Shown here in pieces: positions 2 to 20,042 of a stretch of 64,000 bases of DNA. A model generated the notes under the pieces. That model saw nothing but the letters and a program-made list of their open reading frames with translations, ran no database searches and was not told the DNA's origin. The translations under genes were made by a program, and so were the position numbers. Origin of the DNA: Betaproteobacteria bacterium (lineage in GTDB: Bacteria > Pseudomonadota > Gammaproteobacteria > Burkholderiales > JACQAP01); assembly GCA_031362885.1 (NCBI GenBank), contig JANLTJ010000054.1, forward strand, positions 2,939 to 66,938. The letters run 5' to 3'. The stretch's first letter is position 1, and every line of letters starts with the position of its first letter.

Positions 2-76
2 CTCGTACATGGCGCAACGGTGGTGAGCAAGGACGAGAAGATTCGCGCGTACCGGCACGTGCGCTCGATTTGGTAG
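2..76 (+). CDS. 3' end of an upstream CDS cut by the window edge (product not identifiable)
   Basis: Open frame from the window edge (..LVHGATVVSKDEKIRAYRHVRSIW*) ending at TAG 74-76, 7 nt before the next gene. Co-directional with the polysaccharide cluster. Only 24 codons are visible. Confidence 0.3.
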   Translation, partial: LVHGATVVSKDEKIRAYRHVRSIW

Positions 77-83
77 CCGTATC

Positions 84-1997
84 GTGCTTGTTCCGAAACA
101 AATGAACTTCAATCCGCGATCCGCGCTGGCCTACCTGCACGATTTCGTCGCAGCCGGTCTGGCTTGGTTTGCAGCCTTCTCGCTGCGCTTCAATTTTGAG
201 ACGCCCCCTGAGTTCGGGGTGGTCATGTGGAAAACCGTTGCTGGCGTCATGATGCTGTACGCATTGGGTTTCTGGCTTTTTGGGCTGTACCGGGGGTTGT
301 GGCGCTACGCGAGCATCCACGACTTGCGCCTGATGGTGATCGCGATCGGCATCGGGGCGCTCGCTTTTCCGGCGCTGATGACGCTGATTCAGCCAGGCTT
401 TGTCGTACCGCGCTCTGTGTATGTACTGCATCCGATGTTGCTTCTGTTTTTCATGGGTGGGAGTCGCCTGCTGTATCGAGCTTGGAAAGAACGAAAGATC
501 GGGAAACTCGGCGCGCTTTACGGCAAACCGGTCGTAATTCTTGGAGCCGGTGCTGCCGCCGTTGCGCTGCTCAAGGATCTTGCCAGCAGTACCGAGTGGC
601 GTGTGATCGGGATGCTGGACGACGATGACACGACCCATCGCCGCCAGATCCTCGGCGCCACGGTATTCGGTCGAATTGCCCACTTGCCCACGATAGCGGC
701 GCGATTCGGTGTCGAGCACGCGATTATCGCCATGCCATCCGTGTCCCATGACGTGAGGCGACGGGTAGTGGGAATTTGCCAGGAGGCTGGCCTCAAAATA
801 CTTACCGTGCCGTCGTTCGAAGATTTGATGAGTGGAAAGGTAACGGTCTCGCAGATACGCAAGGTTGAACTCGACGATCTGCTGGGGCGGGATCCGGTCA
901 CGCTCGATGGTGCCGGATTGGCGGAGTTACTGGAAGGCAAGACCGTAATGGTGACGGGCGCCGGTGGTTCAATCGGGGCCGAGTTGTGCCGCCAGATCGT
1001 GCGCTACAAGCCTTCGCGGCTGCTGTTGTATGAAATGTCGGAATTTGCCTTGTATCAGATCGAGCAGGAGTTTAACGATGCGTTCCGGGGCGTTTCGATG
1101 ATTGGCATGATCGGCGATGCCAAGAATCCGCAACGCGTGGCACAGGCAATGGAAAAATACCGGCCACAGGTTGTTTTTCATGCAGCGGCTTACAAGCACG
1201 TGCCGCTGATGGAAGAGGAGAACGCATGGGAAGCAGTGCGCAACAACGTCTACGGCACTTATGTTGTTGCATCCGAGGCGATGCGCCATAACGTCGACAA
1301 GTTTGTCTTGATTTCCACCGACAAAGCGGTCAACCCAGCCAATGTCATGGGCGCGAGCAAGCGGTTGGCGGAAATGGTGTGCCAGTCGTTGCAGCGCCCG
1401 CAGGGCACGCGCTTTGTGATGGTGCGTTTTGGCAATGTTCTCGGCAGCGCCGGCAGCGTCATTCCAAAGTTCCGCGAACAAATCGCCACCGGCGGCCCGG
1501 TGACGGTGACCCATCCCGAGATCACCCGCTTTTTCATGTCCATTCCGGAAGCCGCGCAACTGGTTCTGCAGGCCGGCACCATGGGCCGTGGCGGTGAGAT
1601 TTTCGTGCTCGACATGGGCGAGCCGGTACGCATCGTCGATCTGGCGCGCGACATGATCCGGCTGTCGGGCCTGGCGGAGGATGAAATAAAAATCGTGTTT
1701 ACAGGGTTACGACCTGGCGAGAAACTTTTTGAAGAACTTCTCGCTGCCGGAGAACATACCTTGGCGACGCCGCATCCAAAACTGAGAATTGCAAGGGCAC
1801 GCAATGTGGAGTCTGCTTGGCTTGAAGACCTTCTGGCATGGCTGTCACAGCCGCCGTGCGATGATCGCCAGGTGCGCGCGGAATTGCGAAATTGGGTGCC
1901 GGATTACTTGATTTCCTTGTCGCAGGACGCACCATTCACGGAGTCGCGGGTCGGTCCTGCACGTGGCAGCGCAGCGCTGAATTCTGAGCTGTCGTGA
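84..1997 (+). CDS. Membrane-anchored nucleoside-diphosphate-sugar 4,6-dehydratase/epimerase, CapD/WbpM/PglF family
   Basis: 637 aa. N-terminal TM helices, then two Rossmann motifs (VVILGAGAAAV; VTGAGGSIGAELCRQI) and the CapD-type YKH..STDKAVNP..GASKR core. The GTG at 84 may be replaced by the ATG at 102. Confidence 0.9.
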   Translation: MLVPKQMNFNPRSALAYLHDFVAAGLAWFAAFSLRFNFETPPEFGVVMWKTVAGVMMLYALGFWLFGLYRGLWRYASIHDLRLMVIAIGIGALAFPALMTLIQPGFVVPRSVYVLHPMLLLFFMGGSRLLYRAWKERKIGKLGALYGKPVVILGAGAAAVALLKDLASSTEWRVIGMLDDDDTTHRRQILGATVFGRIAHLPTIAARFGVEHAIIAMPSVSHDVRRRVVGICQEAGLKILTVPSFEDLMSGKVTVSQIRKVELDDLLGRDPVTLDGAGLAELLEGKTVMVTGAGGSIGAELCRQIVRYKPSRLLLYEMSEFALYQIEQEFNDAFRGVSMIGMIGDAKNPQRVAQAMEKYRPQVVFHAAAYKHVPLMEEENAWEAVRNNVYGTYVVASEAMRHNVDKFVLISTDKAVNPANVMGASKRLAEMVCQSLQRPQGTRFVMVRFGNVLGSAGSVIPKFREQIATGGPVTVTHPEITRFFMSIPEAAQLVLQAGTMGRGGEIFVLDMGEPVRIVDLARDMIRLSGLAEDEIKIVFTGLRPGEKLFEELLAAGEHTLATPHPKLRIARARNVESAWLEDLLAWLSQPPCDDRQVRAELRNWVPDYLISLSQDAPFTESRVGPARGSAALNSELS

Positions 1998-2036: not shown

Positions 2037-3419
2037 ATGCGCTGTGAACAGGATGCGATTGCCATGACTCAGGATTCTTTTCCCCGGGTTGGTCGGCCGC
2101 TTCTACTCGGGTTGACTGGCGGCCTGTTGTTTGTCTATTCATTGCCGCATGTCATCGCCCTGCGTTACCTGCTTTTGCTCGCTGCGTTTCTCATGTCGGC
2201 GAAGGCTTCGTGGGGGGTGTTGAGAAGCGGCAATCGTTATTGCGCGCTTACCATCGCCCTCGCGACACTTGCCGTCTTACAGCTATGGATGCTGGTTGTG
2301 GTGATCGGGTTTGCCGAGAACGCAGTCGCGTCAATCGGCGAGTGGAAAGGCCAATGGTTGACGGCGATGATGGCGCTATCGACGGGGATCGGAACTGCGG
2401 CGGTCATTTGTCGGATGCAAACGCTAAACGCTCGTTCGGTTTGTGCATTGACGATTGCGGTACCTGTGACCGCGCTAATAATTTTGCACGATGCCGTTGT
2501 TCTTGGAGACATGCTGAAGCAAGGATCACTGCTTACGCAACACGCGGGGATTACCGATCACAAGGCCAACATAAGCTTTGCTTTTGCGCTTCTTGAGCCA
2601 ATTCTGGTCGCTGATATGCTCAGCCGGCTGGTGCACCGGCGAGGATTGTTGCCGTTTCCCTCCTGGGTGGGGTTGCTGATTCTGGCGTTGTCAGTGTTTG
2701 CGTTGTTGACCGCAGGCGCTCGCAATGGACTGATCACGATCTTTTTTGCTTTCCTCTTGGGCGGGGCGGCAATGCTGCCGCAGCTAAAAGCTGTTTACTC
2801 GCGTCGGCGTCTCGTGGTGAGTTCCATTGCCGGGTTGACACTTATCATCACCTATGCCGTGGTGGCATTAAAAACTGACCCGCGCTGGCAGAATTTTTTG
2901 GAGACCTTGCCGATCGCGTGGGATATTGAAGGCGATACGCGCTGGTTGAACGGAGACGGATCGGATTTGCCGATCGCCCCGAGCGGTAAGCCGGTGGAGG
3001 CCTCGGCCTATTACCGTATCGCGTGGGCACATGAAGGCGCGCGCATGCTGATCGAGCATCCCTTGGGAACCGAGATCAATCGCGGTACGTTCAACCGCCT
3101 GCTGCTTGAAAAATATGGCCATACTGGCGCATCGCATACCCATAACGGCTGGCTCGACATGGGCCTCAACGTCGGATTTCCCGGGCTGATACTCTGGGCC
3201 GGGTTTCTCCTGCTGCTCGCACGCATGGGCTGGCGCATGCACCGGGAGCACGCTGACCCCTTGGGCTTTGCGCTATTTCTCCTGGTCGCGACGTTTGCCT
3301 TCCGCGCATTACTTGACACAACCTTTCGGGAGCACCCTCTGGCCCAGTTCATGCTGGTGGCTGGTCTGCTGGCCGGAACCTTGACCAAGATACAAAGAAG
3401 CGAAAGCGTAAGAGCATGA
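2037..3419 (+). CDS. O-antigen ligase family (Wzy_C domain) polytopic membrane protein
   Basis: 460 aa with many TM segments. The periplasmic loop carries the ligase-type motif HTHNGWLDMGLNVGFPGL. The start could instead be the ATG at 2064. Confidence 0.8.
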   Translation: MRCEQDAIAMTQDSFPRVGRPLLLGLTGGLLFVYSLPHVIALRYLLLLAAFLMSAKASWGVLRSGNRYCALTIALATLAVLQLWMLVVVIGFAENAVASIGEWKGQWLTAMMALSTGIGTAAVICRMQTLNARSVCALTIAVPVTALIILHDAVVLGDMLKQGSLLTQHAGITDHKANISFAFALLEPILVADMLSRLVHRRGLLPFPSWVGLLILALSVFALLTAGARNGLITIFFAFLLGGAAMLPQLKAVYSRRRLVVSSIAGLTLIITYAVVALKTDPRWQNFLETLPIAWDIEGDTRWLNGDGSDLPIAPSGKPVEASAYYRIAWAHEGARMLIEHPLGTEINRGTFNRLLLEKYGHTGASHTHNGWLDMGLNVGFPGLILWAGFLLLLARMGWRMHREHADPLGFALFLLVATFAFRALLDTTFREHPLAQFMLVAGLLAGTLTKIQRSESVRA

Positions 3420-4726
3420 AGGATGATTGGCTGATACTTGCGCACGGTTTTAACATGGACGGCCGTGCGGCGAGTCAGACGATTACCGACAAGATTCCGC
3501 ATCTACGCTCACGAGGTATCACGCCGATTGTCCTGAGTGCCGTTACCGGAAGGCGCGATGAGGTCGTAGAGCACCACCAGTTGCTTCCGGTATCGCCTGC
3601 TGGCCTGCGCTTTGATTTGCGTTACATTCTGCGGCGGCATCTCACCAGCAAGCTCGCGTACAAACTGGCCGTGGGACTGATGACCTTGCTGATGCTGCCC
3701 TTCTACGTGCTCGAAAAGCTTTTCATTCGCCTGGAGCCGCAGTGGTCGTGGTTTATCACCGCCTATTTCTTCGGCGCGCGCATTATCCGCAAACGCCAGC
3801 CCGAAGTGATCTATTCCACTGGCGGCGCCAACTCCGCGCACCTGGCGGGCTATCTGCTTGCCAAGCGCTTCTCGCTGCCCTGGGTGGCGGAAATTCACGA
3901 CCCGATGATTTATGAGAACTGGGAGCGCCGACGCATGGCATACCGGTTTGCGGCCTGGCTCGAAGGCAAAATCTGCCAACGCGCGGACGTCGCCATCTGG
4001 TTTGTCGAACCCGCGCTCGAGCGGGCGCGCAAGCGCCATCCTGTTCTGGGCAATCGCGGCAAGGTGATGATCCCGGGGGCGGATCAGCCGGCCTTTGGAA
4101 AGATTTCCTACCAGCGTGGGGCCGAACTGGTGATCGGGCATTTCGGATCCCTTTCCGTCACGCGCAATCTGGCAACCTTCATGCAGGGTCTCACTGCACT
4201 GCTCCAGAAGCGGCCGGATTTGAGCAGAGTTTTGCGGCTGGAGATGTACGGCAGCGGGCTTGACGGCGTGTCCGAGCGCGCCATCGACAGCTTTGCATAC
4301 CCGCAAGTCGTGCGCCGATTCGGGCGACTCGAACGCGATCCGCTCACCGGCGATAGCGGCCGCGACCGCGTGCTCAAGCGGATGCAGACGGTCGATGCGT
4401 TGCTGCTGCTGCACGGTATGGAAAATTTCTGTGAGGAGTACATCCCTTCGAAGCTCTACGAGTATCTGTGGACGCAGCGCCCGATCATTGGATTGACTTG
4501 GCGCAATGCGCATCTCGACCGGATCTTGAAAGAGAGTGGGCACTGGGCGGTGCAGGCAAACGACCTGCCGGGAATCGCGGCGGTGATCGAGGATCTGGTG
4601 GCGCGCTGGGAAAGTGGCCGACTGGGGGACTCCGGCAAGCCTTCCGTGTATACCTCGGCCGCTGCGGTGGACCAGCTTTGCGCCTGGGCGCAGGAGGCGG
4701 TAGATGCTCGCACCACGAAGAGGTGA
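3416..4726 (+). CDS. Glycosyltransferase (GT-B / GT4-like)
   Basis: 436 aa. The start overlaps the previous stop (ATGA). GT-B-like signatures are STGGANSAHLAGYLLAKRFSLPWVAEIHDP and the C-terminal EEYIPSKLYEYL (E-x7-E-like). Family assignment is from motif recall only. Confidence 0.65.
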   Translation: MKDDWLILAHGFNMDGRAASQTITDKIPHLRSRGITPIVLSAVTGRRDEVVEHHQLLPVSPAGLRFDLRYILRRHLTSKLAYKLAVGLMTLLMLPFYVLEKLFIRLEPQWSWFITAYFFGARIIRKRQPEVIYSTGGANSAHLAGYLLAKRFSLPWVAEIHDPMIYENWERRRMAYRFAAWLEGKICQRADVAIWFVEPALERARKRHPVLGNRGKVMIPGADQPAFGKISYQRGAELVIGHFGSLSVTRNLATFMQGLTALLQKRPDLSRVLRLEMYGSGLDGVSERAIDSFAYPQVVRRFGRLERDPLTGDSGRDRVLKRMQTVDALLLLHGMENFCEEYIPSKLYEYLWTQRPIIGLTWRNAHLDRILKESGHWAVQANDLPGIAAVIEDLVARWESGRLGDSGKPSVYTSAAAVDQLCAWAQEAVDARTTKR

Positions 4727-16506: not shown

Positions 16507-16986
16507 ATGAATCCGCCTGCCGGACAATCTAGCATCAGAGCGATTATGTTGGCCTGGCTGCTGACGGGAGCAGCGCAGGCCGCCGACCTGATCCAGGTGA
16601 AGGATCCATGGACGAGGGCCACGGTTCCGGGACAAAAGGTCGGTGGCGTCTATATGAAGCTGATCGCGCGCGAACCGCTGCGCCTTACGGGCGTGAAAAC
16701 GAAAATGGCGGAAACCGCCGAAGTCCATCAAATGAAAATGGAGGATGGCATGATGAGAATGCGGCCTTTGCCATTTCTCAATCTGCCCGCCCGCACGACC
16801 GTCACGCTCGCGCCGGGAGGCAATCACATTATGCTGTTCGACCTGAAGCAGTCGCTGGTGGCGGGGCAGAAGATCAAGCTGGAACTGGTCGTCGAAGATG
16901 CGTCCAAACGCGAGCGCCGCGTCGCGGTCGAAGCTGTTGTGCGCGATCGTGCGAGCGGTACCCAGACGGAGCACGACCAACGTTGA
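16507..16986 (+). CDS. Periplasmic copper chaperone PCu(A)C (DUF461)
   Basis: 159 aa with a signal sequence. It has the H(M)x10Mx21HxM-type copper motif region (AEVHQMKMEDGMMRMRP...GGNHIMLFDL). The ATG at 16507 was chosen because the upstream part of the track ORF overlaps dacC. Confidence 0.85.
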   Translation: MNPPAGQSSIRAIMLAWLLTGAAQAADLIQVKDPWTRATVPGQKVGGVYMKLIAREPLRLTGVKTKMAETAEVHQMKMEDGMMRMRPLPFLNLPARTTVTLAPGGNHIMLFDLKQSLVAGQKIKLELVVEDASKRERRVAVEAVVRDRASGTQTEHDQR

Positions 16987-16989
16987 CGG

Positions 16990-17784
16990 CTACCCTGCGA
17001 TTTCCAGCCCCGCGATCCAGCCGGCTTCAACCCAGGCGCGCAACATGCCGGCGGCTTTTGCGGCCGCCGCGTCCTCAGCCACCCATTCACACAACCCGGT
17101 GCAGATTTCGCCAAAACTGGCCTGAGACCTCATGGCGTGCAGTGCCCAGGCTTCGTCGGCTTCCAGTGATCGAAAGAATGGCGACAGTTGTTTGCGCCAT
17201 ACAACCCATGTCACCAGTTGGGGCGAAAGATCAACCGCGATCGCGCTGCTGTTTTCCTTGAGAGACTTCCAGATCGCGACCGCATTCGTGCGCAAAGCCA
17301 ATACACGCAAGGCGGGCTGAGCCTGAAAGCGAAGATCGGCCCAGTCCTCGGGCGCAACGGCGGCCATGTCCTCAAATTGCACGGCCTCGATGTCTGCCGC
17401 ATCAAAAGCCTCTCCAAGAGACCACTCGAATTGGGCCAGTTCGGCCATTTCCGGGCGCTCGATGTAGGGCGTTGTCACGCGCAGAAATTCCGCCAGCCTG
17501 CCGCCAAACCAGCGCACGTTTCGAAACGTCGATGGGTGCGCGCCAATGTAATCGCGGGCAAGAGAGTCAAAAGTTTCGTCGCCAAGGTAGGCACGCAGGA
17601 CTTCGTAATCGTTGCCCAGAACCTCGGTCAAACGCAGGCGATAGGCATCACGGTAAATGCCCAGCCGTGTAGAGCGGAATTCCGCGCTGTCGCCTTCGAT
17701 GTGCCGGTCTATGGCCGCCGCGCCTTGCAGCACATAGTCCTGAAAGTGAGTCTCAGTGAGTACAAGACGCGGCGCGTTGCTCAT
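16990..17784 (-). CDS. bufC: DUF2063-family protein, MNIO partner (BufC-like)
   Basis: 264 aa from ATG 17784, which overlaps the DUF692 stop (ATGA). It has the typical DUF2063 N-terminus (..[22 protein letters not shown]..). The gene is always paired with DUF692 in this type of operon. Confidence 0.85.
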
Positions 17785-18620
17785 GCTGCGACCCGGGTAG
17801 GCAGGTTCCGCGAAGCCACTTGGCGCGCGTGCCCGAGTTCGGTCACCAGATCGGCCAGCGGTGGGATATGATCGTCGCGCTCGATCATGGTGGCAACGTT
17901 GCCAAAACGGCGCACCGCGCCGGCGTACAGATCCCACACCGGATCGACAATATCCGCATCATGAGTGTCGATAATATGCGTGCCGCAGTTGCTGTGGCCG
18001 GCCAGGTGAATCTGGCGCACGCGATCGACCGGTATGCCGTTGAGGAACTCCAGAGCGTCGAAACCGTGATTGAAAGCGCTGACGTAAATGTTGTTCACAT
18101 CCAGCAGCACATGGCAGTCGGCGCGTTGCGCGATCTCCGACAGAAAATTCCATTCACTCATCTCGGAGGCACGGAAAGTCACGTAACTCGACACGTTCTC
18201 CAGCAGAATCTGCCGGCCGAGAAAATCCTGTACTTCGCGCACGCGCGCGGCGACATGTTCGACCGCCTCTTCGGTATAGGGAATCGGGAACAGATCGTGC
18301 AGATTCTTGCCGGCGACACCGGTCCAGCACAAATGATCCGACACCCAGGCCGGTTGCACGCGCTGCGCCAGTTGCTTCAGTGACTTCAGGTAATCCTGGT
18401 CAAGCGGGTCCGTGCTGCCGATGGAAAGCGACACCCCGTGCAGCACGATGGGATAGTCGGCACGGATGCGATCCAGGTAATACAGCGGCTTGCCGCCGGA
18501 GACCAGATAGTTTTCGCTGAGCGCCTCGAACCAGTCCACGCGCGGCTGATCCGCCAGGATGTCTTCGTAATGATCGGTGCGCAGGCCGAGGCCGAATCCC
18601 AGTCCCGAAGCTGCTGTCAT
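17781..18620 (-). CDS. bufB: DUF692-family multinuclear non-haem iron oxidase (MNIO; BufB/MbnB-like)
   Basis: 279 aa. [59 protein letters not shown] is full-length collinear with UPF0276/DUF692 TIM-barrel proteins. Confidence 0.9.
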
Positions 18621-18687
18621 GAAGAGACCATCGAGTTCACGCGAACGCGGGAGTCCGACTGGACGGACTCCCGCAACAGGCCTCCAG

Positions 18688-18939
18688 TTACGAGCGCTGG
18701 GTGGCTTTCTTGCATTCTTCCGCGGTCAGCGTAACGACGCCCTGGCCCTTGCAGGCGTTCTGGCCCTTGCAGGCGCTGTTCGCGCTCTTGCACTCACTCT
18801 GACCCTTGCAGGCGTTGCCGCCGTTGCAAGCTATCCGCGCCTCGGTCCCGCCCGAACCGCCCATGCTCGAACAACCCGCCATAAAAATTGCCGCGGCGGA
18901 GGCAGCTACCGCCAAGCCTACGATTTTTCTGCGTTCCAT
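18688..18939 (-). CDS. bufA: Cys-rich secreted RiPP precursor, bufferin BufA2-like (6-Cys class), with a possible lipobox
   Basis: 83 aa with a strong SD (AAGGAGAAGGAAC) before the ATG. The signal peptide ends in FMAGC. The core is [60 protein letters not shown], with 6 Cys. It lies 67 nt upstream of the DUF692 gene. Confidence 0.75.
18742..18814 (-). repeat. Three copies of a 16-nt unit CTGRCCCTTGCAGGCG inside the precursor gene (encode the A-C-K-G-Q motif)
   Basis: Copies at 18742-18757, 18760-18775 and 18799-18814, read directly from the sequence. Copies 1 and 2 are 18 nt apart, giving a 6-codon period. Confidence 0.9.
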
Positions 18940-18982
18940 GGTTCCTTCTCCTTACTAAGAGTTTGATTGACGATCTGCGTGG

Positions 18983-19252
18983 TTACGGCCGTCGTTGCCT
19001 GCCGCAATCCCAAGTACGCAGCAAGCAGGCAAACGGATGCGGGTTAGGGTCCCCTTGTTCTCGCTCCTGGCGATCTGCTTTGATAGCGGGATGATCGCGC
19101 AAGGCAGTGCGCAGAAAGGACATTGGTTTCTGAAGGTTACGGCAGCCGGCGCAGACCTTCAAGTGCACGGATAAACGCCAGCGCTCGACCCAGCCAAGGC
19201 GCCGGTCCCGCGATTGCGAGACCTGCGCCGAGACGTGCTTACAGGTATTCAT
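18983..19252 (-). CDS. zf-HC2 (zinc-binding anti-sigma-like) domain protein
   Basis: 89 aa from ATG 19252: MNTCKHVSAQVSQSRDRRLGWVERWRLSVHLKVCAGCRNL.. carries the H-x3-C-x2-C ZAS motif. No TM segment. Directly upstream of and co-directional with the precursor gene. Confidence 0.6.
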   Translation of the reverse strand: MNTCKHVSAQVSQSRDRRLGWVERWRLSVHLKVCAGCRNLQKPMSFLRTALRDHPAIKADRQEREQGDPNPHPFACLLRTWDCGRQRRP

Positions 19253-19539
19253 CGATTCTGGCTTGCGGCTGATCCGCATTGTGGCAGGCAGTCCTCAATT
19301 GGCAGCACCGATCGGCTGGTCTTCTGTGCCGAACCAGGCACTCGCCCAAGATCAAAGAATAACCCAGCAATTGAATGAGGAAATACCAAGTTCCTCATTG
19401 AGGCGACTGGTGACGCTGCACTTGCGGCAGCGTATAGCGGCAGAGATAGTCGCGGTGCTCCTGAAGCTCTTCGATCCCGGCGCCGCCGATTGCCGCCAAC
19501 GCCGTGGTCGGAACACGCCCTGGCAGGGACATGCATGCT

Positions 19540-19569
19540 CTTGAAATGGCCGGGATGGCGCTTATATAA
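19540..19569 (+). promoter_or_regulatory. Candidate sigma-32 (heat-shock) promoter of the hsp20 gene
   Basis: CTTGAAA (19540-19546), a 13-nt spacer, then gCttATaTA (19560-19568). Compare the consensus CTTGAAA-N13-17-CCCCATnTA. It lies about 50 nt upstream of ATG 19620, which has the SD AAGGAGA. Confidence 0.45.
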
Positions 19570-19619
19570 GCCGCAAGGGTAGCTACTGCACCCGCACTTT
19601 CATTCAAGGAGACCACATC

Positions 19620-20042
19620 ATGGCAAATCTGATGCGCTGCAATCCATTTGACGACGGCTTGGACGACTTTTTCAAGGGTTTTTTCGTGCGCCCGCTAACA
19701 CTCGACAATTCGGCGCCGGTGCAAGTGCGCATGGACGTAGCCGAGGATGCTGACGCCTATACTGTGCGCGCCGAGATTCCGGGCGTGAAAAAAGATGACA
19801 TCAACGTCACCATCGACGGCAATCAAATCGCCATCAGCGCCGAAGTCAAGCGCGAGAGCGAGGACAAGCGCGGTGAAGCGCTGCTGCGCTCCGAGCGTTA
19901 TTATGGAAAAGTCCATCGCGCCTTCAGTCTGGCGCAGGACGTGGACGAGGCCGCGGCGCAAGCGAAGTACCACGAGGGCGTTCTGGAGCTGCGTCTGCCA
20001 AAGAAGGCCGCTGCCAGCGCAAGGAAACTGACGATCCAGTGA
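19620..20042 (+). CDS. Small heat-shock protein, Hsp20/alpha-crystallin family
   Basis: 140 aa. The alpha-crystallin domain runs from DVAEDADAYTVRAEIPGVKKDDINVTIDGNQIAISAE.. to ..GVLELRLPK. Confidence 0.93.
   Translation: MANLMRCNPFDDGLDDFFKGFFVRPLTLDNSAPVQVRMDVAEDADAYTVRAEIPGVKKDDINVTIDGNQIAISAEVKRESEDKRGEALLRSERYYGKVHRAFSLAQDVDEAAAQAKYHEGVLELRLPKKAAASARKLTIQ

Follow-up and report, generated by a model that had tools for sequence, protein, structure and literature searches.

An 83-residue open reading frame (ORF), bufA2, lies in a 64,000-nucleotide stretch of DNA from an uncultured Burkholderiales-like betaproteobacterium (contig JANLTJ010000054.1 of assembly GCA_031362885.1; hereafter the window). 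It encodes a bufferin precursor whose signal peptide appears to end in a lipobox. Bufferins are the largest known group of RiPPs (peptides that ribosomes synthesize and that are modified after translation) made by MNIO enzymes, and they guard bacteria against copper stress. We read the locus as a buf2 operon whose product would be a copper-chelating bufferin with a thiooxazole-containing core, lipidated by Lgt, LspA and Lnt and tethered to the outer membrane; we put the probability of this whole reading at roughly 0.75. The initial annotation of the window had described the ORF as a bufferin-type RiPP precursor whose signal peptide ends in a lipobox, with a seventh cysteine as the predicted lipidated +1 residue, and family models, signal-sequence patterns and the comparison of homologues all support that description.

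The precursor matched the NCBIfam equivalog NF050166 ("BufA2 family periplasmic bufferin-type metallophore") at 69.5 bits, above the cutoff of 60 (E = 2.1e-19, residues 9–79), and a sequence search returned 1149 homologues with E ≤ 1e-3. It does not belong to the two other groups considered. A Pfam search of the 83-residue sequence gave no match, hence none to the BufA1 domain DUF2282 (PF10048), and the core contains six cysteines instead of the four conserved in the BufA1-type pattern. The EGKCG motif, repeats of which would be expected in an oxazolin (Buf_EGKCG/HvfA), does not occur in the precursor. Directly downstream lies bufB, which was recovered by the model NF050167, named "MNIO family bufferin maturase"; the BufB protein scored below the cutoffs of the HvfB (283.8 bits versus 360), ApyH, MbnB and ChrH models, and the HvfC model reached 40.8 bits against a cutoff of 142. 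The start codon of bufC overlaps the stop codon of bufB (ATGA), and the length of its product, 264 residues, was taken from the gene call in near-identical contigs. The precursor gene is thus accompanied by both the MNIO (BufB) and the DUF2063 (BufC) genes associated with bufferins, and no DoxX gene was detected in the stretch from bufA2 through bufB and bufC to the adjacent PCuAC gene. An identical BufA2 peptide is encoded on metagenomic contigs 97.5–99.8% identical to the window, and its closest named relatives are from metagenome-assembled genomes (MAGs) of Betaproteobacteria and Burkholderiales. These models and the gene order identify bufA2-bufB-bufC as a buf2-type operon of three genes, in which the ORF encodes the precursor.

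The N-terminus of the precursor has the charge and hydropathy of a Sec-type signal peptide, as judged by a heuristic based on these two properties: three of the first seven residues are basic (R3, R4 and K5), and residues 6–22 have a mean Kyte-Doolittle hydropathy of 2.17. This hydrophobic region leads straight into G22-C23 without a polar c-region, and no charged residue occurs in the ten positions before C23. The seventh cysteine and the lipobox-like end F-M-A-G-C noted in the initial annotation are present, the cysteine being C23; the other six are C38, C44, C50, C57, C63 and C76. We searched for lipoboxes with a PS51257-type pattern, {DERK}(6)-[LIVMFWSTAG](2)-[LIVMFYSTAGCQ]-[AGS]-C, with the cysteine at positions 15–35 and a lysine or arginine in the first seven residues, and with the G+LPPv2 pattern; the window BufA2 matched both. 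It therefore combines a lipobox and a BufA2 core in one precursor, while the 20 N-terminal residues inspected in BufB contain no hydrophobic signal segment and no signal peptide, the arrangement that defines a RiPP-lipoprotein hybrid.

Comparison across the family shows that the lipobox and the extra cysteine occur together. A lipobox is present in 92 of the 120 best homologues; 88 of these, all full-length, contain seven cysteines, whereas most of the non-lipobox members contain six. Close homologues of the window BufA2 all retain the end [FL][IVML][ATS]G-C. When one genome per species was considered, the lipobox and extra cysteine were found at six of 79 BufA2 loci; the remaining 73 have exactly six cysteines and AxA-type signal peptide ends (e.g., ...APAFA|AD). 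We also searched 1.84 billion cluster representatives (50% identity) by HMMER with the core only (residues 32–83), a query chosen to keep the signal peptide from influencing the order of hits. There were 834 hits; the core pattern is present in 141 of the best 150, and 27 of those 141 (19%) carry a lipobox. Cysteine counts of these representatives are mostly 7 or 13 in lipobox forms and mostly 6 or 12 in the others, such that the lipobox is found in 6-Cys as well as 12-Cys architectures. As a separate observation on the best 150 representatives (P0121–P0268), two-domain forms seem enriched in lipoboxes, with nine having 13 cysteines and a lipobox versus six having 12 cysteines and none, compared with roughly 13 versus 84 for the single-domain forms.

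The residues around the extra cysteine are strongly constrained. In 117 lipobox-bearing members, position −1 is glycine (109) or alanine (8), −2 is alanine, threonine or serine, −3 is isoleucine, valine, methionine or leucine, −4 is mostly phenylalanine, and +2 is alanine or serine. In family members, a median of 16 residues separates the lipobox cysteine from the first core cysteine. In an alignment of 30 sequences (A1), the signal peptidase I (SPase I)-type ends of non-lipobox homologues sit at or just downstream of the lipobox cysteine column, and the Ala-rich stretch upstream is common to both types; for example, homologue P0072 reads ...FVAGTPAIAAEGG at the place where the lipobox clade reads ...FVAGC. 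This alignment of the two kinds of end indicates that cleavage would take place at a homologous position, with only the type of site switching. On a neighbour-joining tree of the core, the lipobox state clusters yet has switched several times: parsimony gave 21 changes compared to about 49 with shuffled states, a count that is unreliable since the short core yields a weakly resolved tree. The position of the cysteine in homologues had been set beforehand as a check on the lipobox, and the outcome was that the extra cysteine tracks signal peptide type and is kept by close homologues. The prediction of a lipobox at C23 is hence well supported.

The modifications, copper binding, lipidation and localization of the window BufA2 are predicted from characterized relatives. 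In Caulobacter vibrioides, the central cysteines of both Buf1 and Buf2 are converted to 5-thiooxazoles and the products bind copper; in Buf2, −4 Da shifts fall on the four central cysteines, with the first and last left unmodified and probably joined by a disulfide (PMC11626156). The six core cysteines of the window BufA2 are spaced by 6, 6, 7, 6 and 13 residues, and all six are invariant in A1 and in a second alignment of 71 sequences (A2). By analogy with Buf2 of C. vibrioides (PMC11626156), C44, C50, C57 and C63 are the predicted thiooxazole sites, of which three sit in A-C-K-G-Q units, and the first and last core cysteines probably form a disulfide. BufB and BufC would act in the cytoplasm to convert the four central cysteines, following which the precursor would be exported by Sec. 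Lgt would then add diacylglycerol to C23, LspA (signal peptidase II) would cut before this residue, and Lnt would N-acylate it, with the C38–C76 disulfide forming later. The predicted product is a triacylated bufferin, tethered through a Gly/Ser-rich segment of about 11 residues and chelating copper in the cell envelope. This order of events has precedent, given that MNIO modification first and the lipoprotein pathway second were shown experimentally for DybA and the oxazolin-type NedA, two MNIO-modified precursors that were isolated as triacylated lipoproteins (PMC13056109).

Certain observations weigh against this reading. Methionine at −3 is rarer than leucine, isoleucine or valine in canonical lipoboxes, yet it occurs in 20 of the 117 family lipoboxes. 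The Ala-rich hydrophobic region (ASAAA) holds formal AxA motifs upstream of C23, i.e., the triplets A-S-A and A-A-A. AlphaFold2 modelling of the precursor gave mean predicted local distance difference test (pLDDT) scores of 48.0 with the 30-sequence alignment and 47.7 with the 71-sequence alignment, and such values of about 48 leave the picture of a disordered tether carrying a folded core without structural support; a profile search of the PDB identified no solved relative, the best E-value of 0.19 being spurious. Finally, full-text literature searches found no report of experimental lipidation of any Buf2.

The AxA triplets also fit a different account, namely that the window BufA2 is an ordinary soluble periplasmic Buf2 that SPase I cleaves inside the Ala-rich stretch, immediately behind it or a few residues past C23. 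In that case C23 would either be lost with the signal peptide or be kept at the mature N-terminus as a free seventh thiol or extra metal ligand. This would conform to the bufferins characterized so far, which are Sec/SPase I substrates (PMC11626156), and to the SPase I-type ends of most family members (the 73 of 79 genome loci above and about 81% of representatives). However, the hydrophobic core of the window signal peptide reaches G22-C23 with no polar c-region, and SPase I-type homologues are cleaved downstream of the aligned cysteine column rather than in the Ala-rich stretch that both types share. Moreover, the strict glycine or alanine at −1, the small residue at −2 and the hydrophobicity of both −3 and −4 are what recognition by Lgt and LspA predicts, whereas a metal ligand predicts none of them, and the extra cysteine was never seen outside a lipobox context among the 120 homologues, the 79 loci or the representatives. 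We consider cleavage by SPase I unlikely.

A further alternative accepts lipidation but places the product elsewhere: retained in the inner membrane, exposed on the cell surface or shed in outer-membrane vesicles. Lipoprotein sorting rules vary among bacteria, some close homologues have aspartate at +3 (GCADM), and lipo-DybAH was found in outer-membrane vesicles of a heterologous host (PMC13056109). Against this, residue +2 of the window BufA2 is Ser24 and not aspartate, and under the rule for Escherichia coli the absence of aspartate at +2 results in Lol-dependent transfer to the outer membrane (PMC13056109); the Lol system would thus probably place the protein on the outer membrane's periplasmic side. 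We regard the other locations as rather improbable. In addition, betaproteobacteria of this kind are not known to have a surface-export signal.

Lipidation and outer-membrane tethering thus remain the preferred reading of the signal peptide, and the core itself raises a separate question. Three near-identical 16-nt repeats encoding A-C-K-G-Q units were reported in the initial annotation, and they are present: the pattern CTGRCCCTTGCAGGCG has exactly three matches in the window (18742, 18760 and 18799), compared with 0.01 expected from dinucleotide-preserving shuffles. Read on the coding strand, the repeat is GCC TGC AAG GG(C/T) CAG. The same annotation took the repeats to suggest growth of the core by intragenic duplication of a 6-codon Cys module, but they are no evidence of recent growth of this kind. 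Throughout the family, the hexad cysteine spacing and the set of three xCKGx units do not vary, and all 6-Cys homologues, whether from Legionella or Burkholderiales or between, agree in both unit number and spacing, which argues that no unit was gained in the window gene. K45, G46, N61 and G67 are invariant in A1 and A2, G65 is fully conserved in A1 and almost fully in A2, and K64 is nearly invariant. Truncated entries aside, no relatives with fewer A-C-K-G-Q units were found among the 120 best homologues; the sole change in copy number observed was a doubling of the entire domain, taking the cysteines from 6 to 12, which has also been described by others (PMC12452194).

The DNA identity of the repeats is explained by all five codons being preferred ones on a conserved peptide motif. 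In 80 BufA2 genes, 25% of within-gene pairs of identical pentapeptides are identical at 15 of 15 nucleotides (32% in high-GC genes), and even between unrelated genes this applies to 8% of identical pentapeptides (17% at high GC). Hence, although the three copies are 15–16/16 identical and the window's general codon usage gives a probability of only about 0.026 that two A-C-K-G-Q units share all five codons, recent duplication or gene conversion expanding the cysteine modules of this gene is very improbable given the constant unit number and the frequency of such identity elsewhere. Any modular duplication dates back to when the family arose.

Table 1. Features of the bufA2 locus, in coordinates of the window.
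Feature	Coordinates	Strand	Basis
bufA2, 83-aa BufA2 (Buf2, BUF_6/12Cys) bufferin precursor	18688..18939	(-)	ORF and NF050166
Signal peptide (predicted), residues 1–22: n-region MERRK and 17-residue h-region	18874..18939	(-)	K/R content and hydropathy
Lipobox M20-A21-G22-C23; C23 predicted diacylglyceryl-modified +1 residue	18871..18882	(-)	PS51257-type and G+LPPv2 patterns
Gly/Ser-rich linker, residues 24–34 (11 residues), predicted tether between lipid anchor and core	18838..18870	(-)	Sequence
Core, residues 35–83, six invariant Cys	18691..18837	(-)	Alignments A1 and A2
16-nt repeat, A-C63-K-G-Q	18742..18757	(-)	
16-nt repeat, A-C57-K-G-Q	18760..18775	(-)	
16-nt repeat, A-C44-K-G-Q, GGT instead of GGC	18799..18814	(-)	
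Shine-Dalgarno AAGGAG	18948..18953	(-)	8 nt before bufA2 ATG, read from sequence
bufB, MNIO-family bufferin maturase	17781..18620	(-)	NF050167, 395.3 bits versus cutoff 310; PF05114, E = 2e-115
bufC, DUF2063 partner protein, 264 aa	16990..17784	(-)	PF09836 (DUF2063 N-terminal domain), 71.3 bits
PCu(A)C periplasmic copper chaperone gene, convergent on bufC	16546..16986	(+)	PF04314, 117 bits
ECF-type promoter-like motif GCATCC-N16-CGTA	19015..19040	(-)	76 nt upstream of bufA2 ATG; only exact hit in window
Small zf-HC2 anti-sigma-like ORF	18983..19279	(-)	NF052368, 54.7 bits versus cutoff 50; PF13490, 24.7 bits
Perfect 11-bp GC-rich stem-loop without U tract, between bufA2 and bufB	18647..18674	(-)	Folding

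The operon is flanked by a gene for a periplasmic copper chaperone of the PCu(A)C type (Table 1). This gene is kept in all seven loci of the window clade that have sequence across the position, from 100% BufA2 identity down to about 51% (L086), and none of the 73 SPase I-type BufA2 loci examined has it. It lies at the same position in L006 (7018–7425), L007 (7207–7551), L066 (1383–1712), L085 (5958–6470) and L086 (6181–6639). L006, L007 and L085 share the whole gene order argB-hsp20-[bufA2BC]-PCuAC-dacC-dat, and L086 shares its part from bufA2 to dat. The association could reflect either lineage synteny or a functional link. One could envisage the tethered Buf2 as a membrane-anchored partner of PCuAC that captures copper at the outer membrane and passes it to PCuAC for cuproenzyme assembly, in an operon driven by an extracytoplasmic function (ECF) sigma factor through GCATCC-N16-CGTA; we view this extended model as speculative and improbable.

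Related loci vary in gene content. In L066, a DUF2063-like gene (10–780 (+)) precedes the lipobox bufA2 (959–1222 (+)) and PCuAC directly follows bufA2 with no bufB between them; the contig ends upstream. In L086, a BufA1 (PF10048/DUF2282) precursor gene (3418–3711 (-)) lies divergently beside the lipobox-bufA2-bufB-bufC operon, and one MNIO pair may serve both bufferin types there. More broadly, of the 72 BufA2 loci (L005–L084) for which 1.5 kb or more of sequence was available downstream, only 44 have bufB within the fetched flank, and the lipobox loci L053 and L060 have no MNIO gene in the fetched flank. Many stand-alone BufA2 precursors have likewise been reported previously (PMC12452194).

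Upstream of bufA2 lies a promoter-like motif, GCATCC-N16-CGTA, that has the architecture of an ECF promoter and is distinct from the Caulobacter SigF site, GTAACC-N16-CGAA (PMC3511200). A relaxed form, ATCC-N15-17-CGTA, occurs within 350 nt upstream of bufA2 at 14 of 83 loci, compared to one of 83 in each of two controls. These loci include every member of the window clade, with the motif at 1152–1176 in L005, 4902–4926 in L006, 3909–3933 in L085, 3879–3903 in L086 and 802–826 in L066. A candidate SigF site was rejected: GTAACC is present at approximately 18981–18986, but AAAC rather than CGAA stands 16 nt on, and conservation of the hexamer does not extend to L006, L007 or L085. A scan of positions 16900–19700 for sigma-70 promoter and terminator consensus sequences gave no excess over shuffles and no usefully placed match.

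Directly upstream of bufA2 there is also a small zf-HC2 anti-sigma-like ORF, which has no adjoining sigma factor gene. It spans 98 residues in the window and 70 in a 97.5%-identical strain, where a stop occurs at codon 71, and the promoter-like motif falls in the part missing from the shorter version. The ORF is absent from the syntenic loci L006, L007, L085 and L086. In the literature, sigma and anti-sigma genes were noted in Buf1 but not Buf2 clusters (PMC12452194). The 70-nt region separating bufA2 from bufB, which holds the stem-loop of Table 1, has a folding energy of −36.2 kcal/mol (z = −5.07). The same stem is present in L005 (about 1515–1545), with nothing comparable in L006 or L007, and the hairpin may act as a partial attenuator or mRNA stabilizer that raises the ratio of precursor to enzyme. 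No RNA families (Rfam, gathering thresholds) or tRNA genes were found in a scan of the whole window.

Two recent publications bear on how new this locus is. Lipoprotein signal peptides have been predicted for approximately 16% of Buf2 bufferins (Microb Genom 2025, PMC12452194), a prediction cited in a subsequent study (PNAS 2026, PMC13056109) in which SignalP-based mining of MNIO neighbourhoods recovered bufferin and oxazolin precursors with signal peptidase II (SPII) signals, and triacylation was proven for lipo-DybAH and lipo-NedABC. The premise of the initial annotation, that lipidation was not known to have been shown for bufferins, has been overtaken: lipoprotein signals had already been predicted for Buf2 (PMC12452194) and MNIO RiPP-lipoproteins have been shown (PMC13056109), but Buf2 itself is not among the latter. 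The idea of a lipobox in the window is correct but already published as a prediction, and the locus adds one member to a known subset. It opens no new concept, because the mechanism of MNIO modification followed by Lgt, LspA and Lnt has been shown for two related RiPP families. It is nevertheless a clean candidate with strong comparative support and a lipobox kept across its clade, and hence a reasonable test case for a first lipidated Buf2. Whether a sizeable minority of bufferins is lipid-anchored, and in which membrane, determines the site of copper sequestration and also bears on their possible shedding in vesicles.

Among known systems, the Buf2 of C. vibrioides (CCNA_02999–03001; PMC11626156) resembles the window locus in its small Sec-exported precursor with six conserved cysteines, its bufA2-bufB(MNIO)-bufC(DUF2063) operon without a DoxX gene, and its copper-related context. 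They differ in that the C. vibrioides precursor is a Sec substrate giving a soluble periplasmic product, whereas the window signal peptide ends in a predicted lipobox with a seventh cysteine, and in that the Caulobacter buf operons are controlled by SigF through its own site (PMC3511200) rather than preceded by the motif of the window. The locus belongs exactly in the predicted-lipoprotein subset of Buf2 (PMC12452194; also mined in PMC13056109), from which it shows no difference in kind, though its clade of Burkholderiales-like MAGs and their PCuAC neighbour are not individually described in either study.

The two proven RiPP-lipoproteins provide the closest mechanistic parallels. Lipo-NedABC, an oxazolin-type EGKCG copper peptide of Neisseria dentiae (PMC13056109), likewise combines an SPII signal with a Cys-rich core modified by an MNIO and a DUF2063-type partner, as is predicted for the window. 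Since NedA was both triacylated and modified in E. coli (PMC13056109), it offers the strongest experimental precedent for the proposed mechanism, and its maturase pair is the closest relative of BufBC (PMC13056109). In contrast to the window precursor, which lacks EGKCG and is paired with a maturase passing the BufB model, NedA has a core of EGKCG repeats and an HvfB-type maturase. Lipo-DybAH, a chryseobasin-like macrocyclic peptide (PMC13056109), is also a RiPP-lipoprotein made via Lgt, LspA and Lnt, in which an extra invariant cysteine is the lipobox cysteine, as we predict for C23. However, it originates from Bacteroidota, and its MNIO chemistry is of the ChrH type, yielding a macrocycle and hydantoin rather than copper-binding heterocycles.

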